Source: a virus (Duplodnaviria > Caudoviricetes). Taken from it: DNA of 64,000 bases. This document shows, piece after piece, positions 42,982-58,224 of this stretch; the stretch's first letter is position 1; the number at the start of each line of letters is the position of its first letter. The position numbers and the translations under genes were made by a program. Location of the stretch: IMG/VR virus record IMGVR_UViG_3300042301_004035, one strand, 5' to 3'. The notes under the pieces are model-generated. The model made no database searches. It saw only the letters and a program-made list of their open reading frames with translations, and had not been told where the DNA came from.

Positions 42982-45657
42982 ATGGAAACACCACAACAAA
43001 AGCTCAATCGTTTAACGACAGAGCCTCAACAGAAAGGAGCAGAAGTGATTGCATTCATGCATGACTTCTTCCACACCATCACCAACGACCCAACAGAGCG
43101 TGAGTCATTGGCCTATTCAACCGTAAAGAAGACGGGCAAACCATTCAAGATGGGGACAACAGTTCGCACTGGTGAGAATGGTGCATACAACCACCATATC
43201 TGGCTTATGCCAATCAACAACAACCCTACTTGGAAGTATGGACTCTTGGAGCACAAGCTTAACAGCCGCGGTAAGAAGTTCAAGCTTAAGATGATCACAA
43301 TCAATGAGCTGAAGCAGTGGATCAGCAAGGACAACGGAGACTTAGATGCACTCATCGAAGAATCCAACTTTGCCTGGGCTAATGCAACACATGCTTTCTT
43401 CTTGAAGATGCGTGAAGACAACAACTGGTCATTGGATGATCTTGGTGTCAGCGTAATCGACATGAAGAAGACATCAAAGCGACTTCAAGAAATCACACGG
43501 TTTACTCAGGTATATCGTTCAAGGTCAATGAAGTCAGTCACCACTAAGGCTTATACGAACGAATGGCTTGAGCAATACTACTCTAGCTATGGATTGAAGT
43601 ATGATCCAGCAGATGAGGTGATGTTTGATGGACCAGCCTTTATGCGCAAATCAGCATTCATCAAAGCTTGTTTCCCTATCAAAGATGCGGAAGTAAGAGG
43701 CAGGATGATTGGTGGTGTGCACGGTGACAATCGTACTTGGTTGTTCCGTATGAAAATGGAAAGCTTCATGCTTAAGGGCTTGTTGCACATTGTTGAGGAT
43801 GATGAAATCCCAGCAGATATTGTGTACCACGAATCAATGGAGAAGAAGGAATTGTCCACAACAGATGGTAATTATACATTTGTAGCGTGGCCGATGCCAA
43901 CTCTGTACGAAGTAACGATTGACGATCAATCAATGATCAACAATCCATGGTTGTACACCACTGAACACCTCAAAGCTACATGTGACAGTCTTTTGTCTGA
44001 CTTCAAGAAAGAAATCGAAGTGGGCAATATGCCAGAATGGATGACTGTTAGCATGGATGATCAAGAGGATCATGGAGTAGTCAACGAAGACAATGAACTC
44101 CAAGAGTGGCAAGCAAACTACATCAAGTGGCAAAAGGCTGGGTTCTCATTGTATGACAGCTCAAACTTCATCCACATGGCGTATGGTCAGCTTGCTAATC
44201 GCATGAGTGCATCAGTTAAGCGTGGTAACATCTGGTTGCCAATGTTTAATGCATTCATGGCTCCTGTCATTACTCATGAGGCATTGCAAATCATGGGTGG
44301 ACAAGAGCTGCCAGAGTCAAAGTCAAATGTTGTATGGTATGACAAGCGCTTCGGTGCAATCATCCCAGGCAATCGCTTTGTTGAGACAGCAGACCTCCAC
44401 GATACATGGGATCAAGATGGTGACATGGCTAGGTTCATTCGCATTAAGTTGTGGAGCTCTTCGCCAGTTGTAACTCTCTATGGGTTGTCACACCAGGAAT
44501 TCAGGGATGGATTTGTTATCCCAGCTGACCTGGAAGTACCAACCACACCAGAAGAAGCAATCGACATGGTTGTTATCATTCGTTCACCAAACGGACCTGG
44601 TGGTTATTCAATCGAGCGTTACGATGCAGAGACAATGCCATTTATGCGTGTAAACGAGGACATGGTACAGGTAATTGACCTTAGCAAAGCAACATTGCCG
44701 ATGAGCACACTGCTTAAAGACACTATTGTTGACACTAAGCTCAATGAAATCCTGAACTCAACACAGTACACCAAGAGGGGATTCACACGGGATAACGCCA
44801 AGGACATGATTGATGCACAACTGCACAACCCTGGGTTTGGTTCATTCTCGAACTTCATGATGGTGCATGCAAGTGTGTTCGGTCCAAGCTACCCAACCTA
44901 CATGCCAGCTAGTGGTAATGACATTATCGATGCAAGCTCTCAGACAGCAAACATTGAGGCATTCCGCTTTATCAGTGGCAGCGTATCAACCATGTGGCAA
45001 TCAATGATCGATGATATCATCAAGCAAGATATCAGGGTTGACAGCTATATGATGAGTCGTATCCCTGATCGGTTCAAGCATGAGTTGGAAGGTAATGTCT
45101 ACGATGGACCATTGGCAGAGCTCAGTGAGCACTACATCAAGGTACTCAAGGATGTACGCGAAGAGAAGAAGAACACTATCTATCTCCGCATGCGTTCTGA
45201 GTTAATCCCTCAACTGCAACAGTTAATTCCTACGCTGTCAGATCAAACACAGGCTGTCTGTGAAGCATTCAACACCAAGTACATCCACATGTTGCGTGCA
45301 TTTGACGAACGTAAGGCAGAAGCTAAGGCAGAAGAGACAAAGTGGTCAAGCCGTTACTTCAAGGCATGGAACGCTGTGTATTCTTCAACCGAGTTGGAAG
45401 CCATTGTCAAGATGATGGTCGATGAGATTGAAACGTCCAAGTCACCAACCAAGATGGCTGTTGCTATCTACCGCTGGATGACTGATCCAAAGATGAGCTA
45501 CGAGAAAGTATATCACGAAGGTCGTGGTGAATACATCAAAGCTAATGCTCATCTGCGTTATGGTCTTATTGACCGTGTAATGTTCCAAGCCGGCAAGCGT
45601 GGGCAGAAATCAATGATGGATCTGCTTATCCAGGGGCTCAAGGATCTGGGCCTCTAG
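42982..45657 (+). CDS. Single-chain two-barrel polymerase, cellular-RdRP/YonO-like (paralog 1), 891 aa
   Basis: FDGPAFM, FRM...LKGLLHIV...I.YHESM.K, KRGNIWLP, DQDGD and VIIRSPN resemble the RdRP blocks DG.G.IS, FQ.R..G.KG, R.SM.KF, K.RI.VP, DxDGD and RNP. Start ATG 42982 after GGGGAGG. Confidence 0.7.
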   Translation: METPQQKLNRLTTEPQQKGAEVIAFMHDFFHTITNDPTERESLAYSTVKKTGKPFKMGTTVRTGENGAYNHHIWLMPINNNPTWKYGLLEHKLNSRGKKFKLKMITINELKQWISKDNGDLDALIEESNFAWANATHAFFLKMREDNNWSLDDLGVSVIDMKKTSKRLQEITRFTQVYRSRSMKSVTTKAYTNEWLEQYYSSYGLKYDPADEVMFDGPAFMRKSAFIKACFPIKDAEVRGRMIGGVHGDNRTWLFRMKMESFMLKGLLHIVEDDEIPADIVYHESMEKKELSTTDGNYTFVAWPMPTLYEVTIDDQSMINNPWLYTTEHLKATCDSLLSDFKKEIEVGNMPEWMTVSMDDQEDHGVVNEDNELQEWQANYIKWQKAGFSLYDSSNFIHMAYGQLANRMSASVKRGNIWLPMFNAFMAPVITHEALQIMGGQELPESKSNVVWYDKRFGAIIPGNRFVETADLHDTWDQDGDMARFIRIKLWSSSPVVTLYGLSHQEFRDGFVIPADLEVPTTPEEAIDMVVIIRSPNGPGGYSIERYDAETMPFMRVNEDMVQVIDLSKATLPMSTLLKDTIVDTKLNEILNSTQYTKRGFTRDNAKDMIDAQLHNPGFGSFSNFMMVHASVFGPSYPTYMPASGNDIIDASSQTANIEAFRFISGSVSTMWQSMIDDIIKQDIRVDSYMMSRIPDRFKHELEGNVYDGPLAELSEHYIKVLKDVREEKKNTIYLRMRSELIPQLQQLIPTLSDQTQAVCEAFNTKYIHMLRAFDERKAEAKAEETKWSSRYFKAWNAVYSSTELEAIVKMMVDEIETSKSPTKMAVAIYRWMTDPKMSYEKVYHEGRGEYIKANAHLRYGLIDRVMFQAGKRGQKSMMDLLIQGLKDLGL

Positions 45658-58224: not shown

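Follow-up and report, generated by a model that had tools for sequence, protein, structure and literature searches.

Why would one phage carry two large single-chain proteins that resemble RNA polymerases, and what would they transcribe? This question is raised by a 64,000-nucleotide stretch of DNA from a tailed phage (IMG/VR record IMGVR_UViG_3300042301_004035), which was analysed as a whole and is hereafter called the window. The two genes, here named pol a (P0001) and pol b (P0002), were intact open reading frames (ORFs) on the plus strand:

42982-45654, plus strand: pol a, 891 aa, predicted single-chain two-barrel polymerase with a DQDGD loop
55591-58221, plus strand: pol b, 877 aa, paralogue of pol a, predicted two-barrel polymerase with a DEDD loop

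We consider it most likely, with a probability of roughly 0.6, that both are active, promoter-specific, DNA-dependent phage RNA polymerases (RNAPs), that at least one of them reads a private DNA motif, and that together they may form a transcription cascade. The template, the product, the recognition of the promoter and the order of the cascade are the parts of this proposal that we infer.

Paralogy and pairing of the two genes

The proteins encoded by pol a and pol b are true, anciently diverged paralogues. Pairwise BLASTP gave an E-value of 4e-6 with 22% identity across approximately 300 residues, and an hhalign comparison of the two family alignments gave a probability of 99.9% (E 1.6e-32, 567 aligned columns). 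Twenty-five columns were invariant across both families, including D216, G217, R256, K265, G266, K288, D477, D479, D481, R534, P536 and N537. The collinear blocks on which a sequence-only reading of the window had based its claim of paralogy (DGPAFM/DGGFVI, LKGLLHIV/LKGNAIV, RGNIWLP/KPRIPVP, DQDGD/DEDD and RSPNGPGGYS/RSPNDLGEYS) were all present and in the same order. The pol a start codon at 42982 was preceded by a GGGAGG ribosome-binding site. Clustered at 90% identity, the metagenome families comprised 69 clusters for pol a and 247 for pol b. An exhaustive hidden Markov model search with the joint profile recovered 534 cluster representatives at E ≤1e-3, 219 of these at E ≤1e-30.

Scans of both proteins against Pfam and PHROGs returned nothing meaningful, and PDB sequence searches with both, as single sequences and as profiles, found no relative. 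A tblastn search with P0001 against 50,697 phage records gave no match, and the Pfam family of RNA-dependent RNA polymerases (RdRPs; PF05183) did not match these proteins even at E-values up to 1.

All five related phage records (169-216 kb) contained a single 'a' gene and a single 'b' gene, encoded on one strand and separated by 10-16 kb. A maximum-likelihood tree of 156 sequences grouped the 'b' copies from every one of these genomes with P0002. The 'a' copies lay across the midpoint root, two in the P0001 clade and two (from G004 and G005) in a different clade. The pairing is conserved and the identity of partner 'a' is not, since the G004 and G005 copies belong to another clade. Both copies stood free as ORFs, on the opposite strand from the structural genes, and neither was fused to a tape measure or virion protein. 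A search of six records with the joint profile at E-values up to 10 found no third, virion-type copy, which does not amount to an exclusion. The Rpb1 domain-2 family (PF00623) had no match in four complete relatives; the proteins here are single chains.

Upstream of pol a, an exact 26-nt repeat (CAACCAACAACAAnTnGGGAGGTAAA) occurred twice, at 42452-42477 and 42952-42977, where no repeat was expected. One copy stood 5' of an in-frame internal ATG (codon 117) of a 267-aa zinc-ribbon-like ORF and the other 5' of the pol a start codon. In frame, the repeat encodes a linker, QPTT..EV.PM; relatives such as P0004 carry a similar linker, KPTTDGEVKPM, after an N-terminal domain and directly ahead of the polymerase part. 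Varied N-terminal fusions were observed among relatives of pol a (P0004, P0005, P0012, P0014, P0013, P0242, P0251, P0274 and P0315), the fused domains being weakly 2-oxoglutarate (2OG)-Fe(II) oxygenase-like (E ~1e-3), NADAR (E 2e-23), PIF1-like helicase (E 1e-39) and DUF4326 (E 9e-20). The reading frame of pol a in G002 was open for 1,132 aa. We considered the upstream 267-aa ORF as the N-terminal extension of the 1,110-aa homologues, and the comparison showed otherwise. Upstream of pol a, at 38048-38590 and 35707-36564, two unfused genes encoded 2OG-Fe(II) oxygenase-like proteins (E 9e-6 and a faint 9e-3), a domain type that relatives carry fused to pol a.

Predicted fold and active-site residues

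AlphaFold (AF2) models were built on the family alignments and reached a mean local confidence (pLDDT) of 86.6 and a global template-modelling score (pTM) of 0.85 for pol a, and 84.6 and 0.82 for pol b. When the models were compared with the PDB using Foldseek, the eukaryotic RdRPs QDE-1 and plant (maize) RDR2 came first for both (E 1e-9 to 1e-7, probability 1.0), with E-values of 6e-8 for pol a and QDE-1, 1e-9 for pol b and RDR2, and 1.5e-9 for pol b and QDE-1. The next matches were the non-virion RNAPs of Thermus phages (P32 gp64, P74 gp62) and gp66 from phi14:2, a crAss-like phage, with the virion RNAP gp96 of Thermus phage P23-45 also found for pol a. The VIA search, a structure search independent of Foldseek that covered 48,161 chains, returned RDR2 (Z 11.2, 602 residues aligned), QDE-1 (Z 10.6), P74 gp62 (Z 9.3) and gp96 (Z 8.2) for pol a, and RDR2 (Z 11.9), QDE-1 (Z 8.9), P74 gp62 (Z 9.1), gp96 (Z 7.1) and crAss gp66 (Z 5.8) for pol b. 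For both models, the top matches in Foldseek and VIA were exclusively two-barrel RNA polymerases, ranked above unrelated entries. In the Swiss-Prot part of the AlphaFold database (AFDB), twelve eukaryotic RDRs were followed by the model of YonO from phage SPbeta (E 8.5e-4, probability 0.99), and the closest viral models in BFVD were two 'uncharacterized' proteins from uncultured Caudovirales. Residues ~190-320 of pol a matched free-standing double-psi beta-barrel domains weakly (p97-N, EG45, RlpA-like and FwdD), which would fit a first barrel in this part of the protein.

Because the top matches of confident models were two-barrel RNA polymerases in every search, a two-barrel (double-psi beta-barrel) polymerase fold is supported for both proteins at the level of predicted structure. 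The sequence-only reading had proposed this fold and would have given it up if no double-psi barrels were predicted; it was upheld by two confident models that matched two-barrel enzymes, from RDR2 and QDE-1 through gp64/gp62, gp96 and gp66 to the YonO model. In profile comparisons, hhalign found no significant alignment of the joint profile to YonO alone or of the cut-out barrel regions to YonO, and the A3 profile matched the 17-member YonO family profile (A4) with a probability of 0.4%. The non-significant alignments of the cut-out regions set the DG, KG and Asp-loop motifs against those of YonO and left the YonO RSPH segment as an insertion.

The candidate active-site elements were located as follows:

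43771..43779, plus strand: L-K-G (K265, G266) of pol a, putative first beta-like barrel; K288 is 23 codons downstream
44410..44424, plus strand: D477-Q-D479-G-D481 of pol a, presumed metal-binding loop, invariant in families A1 and A3
44581..44592, plus strand: R534-S-P536-N537 strand of pol a, after the Asp loop
56953..56964, plus strand: D455-E-D457-D458 of pol b, Asp loop without Gly, invariant in 30 family members
57034..57045, plus strand: R482-S-P-N485 strand of pol b, invariant

Conservation of residues was counted among 331 superfamily sequences. D477, D479 and D481 were kept in 331/331 sequences, R534 in 330/330 and P536 in 329/329; K265 was kept in 326/327, K288 in 326/328 and D216 in 322/322. 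Catalytically, the two-barrel superfamily is defined by an Asp triad in one barrel and a pair of conserved lysines in the other (PMC7824862), and each chain here would supply both halves of the active site, the first barrel contributing the two lysines and the second the three aspartates. The assignment of K265 and K288 to the first barrel was made from secondary structure and from the likeness of the motifs to YonO: the L-K-G and K288 segments of pol a resemble YonO VKGLL and SQFK by eye, a likeness that was statistically not significant.

The loop was of the form D-x-D-D in 136 of 140 representatives of 50%-identity clusters and D-x-D-G-D in 4, and P0070 and P0071, the outgroups closest to the P0001 family, also had DxDD. 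Judged by these counts, a Gly-less DxDD is what the family normally conserves, and the DxDGD of pol a is the exception. The DxDD loop has three Asp, the last moved up by one residue, and is a putative metal loop. Owing to this loop, pol b had been suspected of being altered or inactive. This suspicion was not borne out, because most of the superfamily has DxDD and none of the three Asp varies. In YonO, mutation of the Asp triad abolishes activity (PMC5467207).

The order of the motifs differed from that of YonO, in which RSPH (492-495) precedes DNDGD (535-539), the strand lying approximately 40 residues N-terminal to the loop. In the present superfamily the order was reversed: a hydrophobic-R-S-P-N strand was positioned 24-53 residues C-terminal to the Asp loop (534-537 in pol a, 482-485 in pol b). 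The gap between the preceding helix and the strands entering the loop was only approximately 10 residues in both proteins. R-x-P before the loop is the order in QDE-1 (RSPAH) and beta-prime (NRAP) as well. As the RSPN strand follows the Asp loop and the RSPH of YonO precedes it, the sequences suggest a relocated strand, that is, a permuted catalytic barrel.

Compared with characterised enzymes, the two proteins were most similar in structure to the eukaryotic RdRPs (QDE-1, RDR2; PF05183), with Z 8.9-11.9 over approximately 600 residues that include regions outside the barrels; these enzymes, too, are single chains of approximately 900 residues with an Asp-triad loop. They differ from the phage family in that the latter has no PF05183 match, mostly has DxDD and carries its RSPN strand after the loop; it is also phage-encoded and adjoins promoter-like DNA motifs, and its template is probably DNA. 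YonO shares with pol a and pol b the phage origin, the single chain of approximately 840-890 aa, a structural match spanning residues 214-888 and, by eye, the motifs DG.G.M, R....KGLL, S..K and DxDGD. In contrast to the present pair, YonO occurs only once in its phage, which is temperate, and many YonO homologues are recognised by PF05183. The parallel with P23-45 that the sequence-only reading had drawn is apt, as the genome of that phage also encodes a pair of paralogous single-chain two-barrel RNAPs. They stem from an old duplication, and each gene class has its own short promoter motif (PMC10770324). Structural matches to enzymes of this kind reached Z 7.1-9.3. In P23-45, gp96 is the virion RNAP, a tape-measure fusion, and gp64 the non-virion RNAP; here, however, both copies are free-standing proteins of approximately 880 aa in the non-structural arm, and the motif regulon is confined between the two genes. 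The match to crAss-like phi14:2 gp66, a QDE-1-like two-barrel enzyme, was weak but specific (Foldseek E 0.03-0.07); gp66 is a 2,180-aa virion protein, and the motif of its family is given as DFDxD (10.1101/2020.03.07.982082). Jumbo phages of the phiKZ/AR9 type also have two polymerase sets per genome of approximately 200 kb, but theirs are split beta/beta-prime homologues, unlike the single chains here.

A strand-specific motif between pol a and pol b

Flanked by the two genes is a block of approximately 10 kb in which the motif GGAATAAGWC (GGAATAAGWCGG in this phage) occurred in five exact copies and one copy with a single mismatch. All six were on the plus strand between the pol a stop and the pol b start (at 45793, 46539, 47467, 48435, 51467 and 55489), where approximately 0.2 were expected by estimate. 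The motif was usually followed by GG(G) and stood 15-60 nt 5' of a ribosome-binding site and start codon; the G run often began a short 5' hairpin. The features of the block were:

45793..45804, plus strand: motif copy 1, TGAATAAGTCGG, one mismatch; 136 nt past the pol a stop; exact in relative G002 (L055)
45878..55464, plus strand: block between the polymerase genes; co-oriented, mostly small unannotated genes, from the ORF lists
46436..46481, plus strand: strong terminator-like hairpin of the intrinsic type, 20-bp stem and T run, just 5' of motif copy 2
46539..46550, plus strand: motif copy 2, GGAATAAGTCGG; 18 nt 5' of the ATG of a 52-aa ORF
47467..47478, plus strand: motif copy 3; 15 nt 5' of the ATG at 47492; syntenic copy in L007
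48435..48446, plus strand: motif copy 4; ahead of a small conserved gene with a product starting MFDWLFD
51467..51476, plus strand: motif copy 5, GGAATAAGAC; syntenic copy in L007
55489..55523, plus strand: motif copy 6 with an 8-bp GC hairpin and T run (hairpin and T run at 55499-55523); 68 nt 5' of the pol b start

The motif changed with the polymerase lineage. In phages whose pol b was 81-88% identical, it was kept at syntenic sites, and the flanking intergenic DNA had diverged. More distant lineages carried other words at the same syntenic sites, namely AAAATAGGGG (8 copies), YAAAAGGGGG (7) and AACAAAGTGGGG (7), none of them on the opposite strand. The syntenic sites were two just past pol a, one before the small MFDW gene and one before pol b. 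At the site of copy 4, each of L006, L007, L010, L013 and L064 had the motif of its own lineage, and the hairpin arrangement of copy 6 was kept in L006, L010 and L013 with altered stem and loop sequences. In two complete genomes, all copies (8/8 in G003, 5/5 in G002) were found between pol a and pol b only, and the reversed control word was absent. Sigma-70-like promoters in the block were at background level (42 found, 46.7 expected).

An A-rich word with an initiating G run that is strand-specific, lies ahead of genes and changes with the polymerase lineage behaves like the promoters of the T7 group. By these traits the motif is promoter-like and a putative promoter of a phage-encoded RNA polymerase. 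For P23-45, promoters of its own polymerases have been documented (PMC10770324). The hairpin at copy 6 might serve to stabilise the 5' end, to attenuate transcription or to terminate the block.

Further sequence elements were observed around the motif sites. A conserved short element, ACGGGTCT(G/A)(G/A)(C/G)C, stood before the first motif copy after pol a (window 45770-45792, L055:4228-4250, L010:1400-1421 and L013:1015-1038) and was shared by several lineages whose motifs are not the same. In the G004 lineage, whose pol a comes from a different clade, the A-rich motif with its G run was absent; just upstream of pol b (L023:9374-9865), this genome had 14 iteron-like tandem copies of (A/G)AATGAATCA at a spacing of 36-38 bp. 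Reverse-complemented, the motif core GGAATAA gives TTATTCC, the core of the AT-rich promoter motif of P23-45 (PMC10770324); with the opposite orientation, this is probably a coincidence.

Beyond the polymerase genes and the motif, the window had the layout of a tailed phage. The minus strand (1-34 kb) encoded tail fibres, a portal protein, the large terminase and a Lon-like protease, and the plus strand (34.7-64 kb) encoded a UvsX-like recombinase, numerous small unannotated ORFs, a WhiB-like factor, a superfamily 2 (SF2) helicase and an S8 protease. Repeats of TTACTAT(A/T) were present upstream of several minus-strand late genes (e.g. 34228, 14650, 10955 and 2430), and some copies were intragenic. 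Near-identical DNA was found across many lake-water metagenomes, and the relatives in IMG/VR had genome sizes of 170-270 kb; several of them showed terminal repeats and an estimated completeness of 100%. The source of the window is a lake phage of roughly 200 kb. Within the inter-polymerase block, a 347-aa ORF (48800-49843) was present in 37/46 related loci; an Atlas feature search with this conserved ORF gave scores that were all <0.8. It was followed by the WhiB-like factor (49921-50277; PF02467, E 3.5e-15 in Pfam), which lies inside the block and points to an actinobacterial host. Sigma70_r2 had no match among the relatives searched, a negative of little weight. Past pol b lay a further conserved block:

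58476..63216, plus strand: conserved block 3' of pol b, with a 200-aa ORF, a RadD-like SF2 helicase (59250-60929) and an S8 protease (61750-63216)

The helicase was the best-conserved gene of the neighbourhood, located 1-6 kb beyond pol b in 43/46 loci with 61-89% identity. It matched RadD (E 1.4e-35), XPB and T4 UvsW more weakly, and the Pfam families ResIII and Helicase_C.

Proposed function and its alternatives

As transcriptases, the two polymerases and the block of small genes between them would form a self-contained transcription module of which the block makes up approximately 10 kb. At least one polymerase would start transcripts at the private A-rich and G-run motif ahead of the small genes and of pol b. 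A cascade is suggested because pol a has no motif upstream, whereas the motif precedes the block and pol b; in the simplest order, pol a would come first, the block including pol b next and the targets of pol b last. The cascade proposed in the sequence-only reading thus gained indirect support from a promoter-like motif between the genes and directly upstream of pol b, and its order is something we infer.

Several observations weigh against promoter-specific transcription of this kind. The best structural matches of both proteins are RNA-dependent enzymes, and by sequence the profiles tie the family neither to the Pfam RdRP nor to the YonO profile. The R-x-P strand sits across the Asp loop from its position in YonO, QDE-1 and beta-prime, so that the active-site geometry may not be equivalent. 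The motif spans only approximately 10 kb of a genome of approximately 200 kb, so that it does not by itself explain the need for two polymerases. Copy 6, ahead of pol b, is joined to a terminator-like hairpin, and at least this site could therefore be a transcript end rather than a start. Contigs from lake metatranscriptomes, compared with 41000-60900, covered pieces of the inter-polymerase block and neither polymerase gene; the gaps over the polymerase genes give no conclusion, because the runs had been chosen with the block as the query and assembled contigs cannot show 5' ends and may contain DNA. Finally, no canonical primase was detected in the relatives, which would fit a replication role.

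Such a role, in which one or both enzymes would make primers or origin R-loops for a phage DnaE-type polymerase and replace the missing primase, is unlikely but survives best among the alternatives. Four complete relatives encode DnaE (PF07733, E ~1e-92), and no PolA, PolB, DNAG_N, Toprim_2, Toprim_4 or Prim-Pol was found in them by Pfam; absent primase matches after a loose pre-filter are, however, weak evidence. Some members (P0242, P0251) have a PIF1-like helicase at the N-terminus, recalling helicase-primases, but helicase fusions occur in eukaryotic RdRPs too (Q54UI6). The linkage of pol b to the RadD-like helicase in 43/46 loci and the UvsX-like recombinase in the same window also fit replication, although RadD-type helicases are repair rather than replicative enzymes. 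To our knowledge, no characterised two-barrel enzyme is a primase, and the size and overall architecture of both proteins resemble transcriptases. The motif likewise looks like a promoter and not like an origin: it is strand-specific, stands before the ribosome-binding sites of small genes and co-varies with the lineage.

Obligate heterodimerisation, with one subunit structural or regulatory, would account for the strict co-occurrence of the two types, one copy each, in all five related genomes, and QDE-1 is a dimer. We regard it as the least probable alternative, highly improbable in fact, because strong purifying selection has preserved all catalytic residues in both copies, the motif ahead of pol b points to expression in sequence rather than together, P23-45 gp64 and gp96 are monomers (PMC10770324), and a co-evolved interface is hard to reconcile with G004 and G005, in which 'a' has been exchanged for a protein from another clade and 'b' has remained orthologous.

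Synthesis of double-stranded or antisense RNA from phage or host transcripts by RNA-dependent RNA polymerases, for regulation or counter-defence, is slightly better placed and still improbable. RDR2 and QDE-1 were the top structural matches of both proteins over nearly the whole chain, beyond the barrels. The PDB ranking may lean towards eukaryotic enzymes, however, since no YonO structure was among the PDB matches. The DNA motif pattern favours DNA promoters. Moreover, YonO, crAss gp66 and P23-45 gp64 and gp96 are all DNA-dependent (PMC5467207, PMC10770324, 10.1101/2020.03.07.982082), and QDE-1 itself accepts DNA templates (PMC9508822).

The kind of enzyme proposed here, a single-chain two-barrel phage RNAP, is already known, and so is its pairing, from P23-45. 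The present family differs in its lack of a PF05183 or YonO profile match, in the order of its motifs, in the spacing of its metal loop and in the cassette bracketed by the polymerases with its lineage-specific motifs. Literature searches found no description of it. The supplementary text of PMC10770324, including its table of viruses with two RNAPs, contained no DQDGD, HDEDD or RSPNG and no 'uncultured Caudovirales' entry; that survey was filtered on [RK]xP followed by DxDxD, and the present family passes neither filter. More tentatively, and with less confidence than we place in their action as transcriptases, we suggest that the family may be a large, unrecognised two-barrel branch of at least 534 clusters at 50% identity, mostly of lake phages of approximately 200 kb, with a rewired barrel (DxDD, moved R-x-P). 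Along its full length this branch might be nearer to the eukaryotic polymerases of RNA interference (RNAi) than YonO is, and it would include candidate phage ancestors of those enzymes. In each phage, the polymerase pair and the enclosed genes might make up an autonomous, self-promoting cassette with a co-evolving promoter word.

Single-chain two-barrel RNAPs are minimal relatives of cellular RNA polymerase and the presumed ancestors of the eukaryotic RNAi polymerases, and few have been characterised (YonO, crAss gp66, and P23-45 gp64 and gp96). Although abundant in freshwater viromes, the family described here escapes Pfam, PHROGs and sequence searches of the PDB. If its members served replication, it would be the first of two-barrel primases. 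The supposedly universal DxDxD spacing appears to be replaceable by DxDD across a whole lineage, and the catalytic barrel may be permuted. Candidate cognate promoters that differ between lineages accompany the family, which may thus offer an experimental system for work on promoter recognition by a minimal two-barrel enzyme and, possibly, a source of orthogonal transcription tools.

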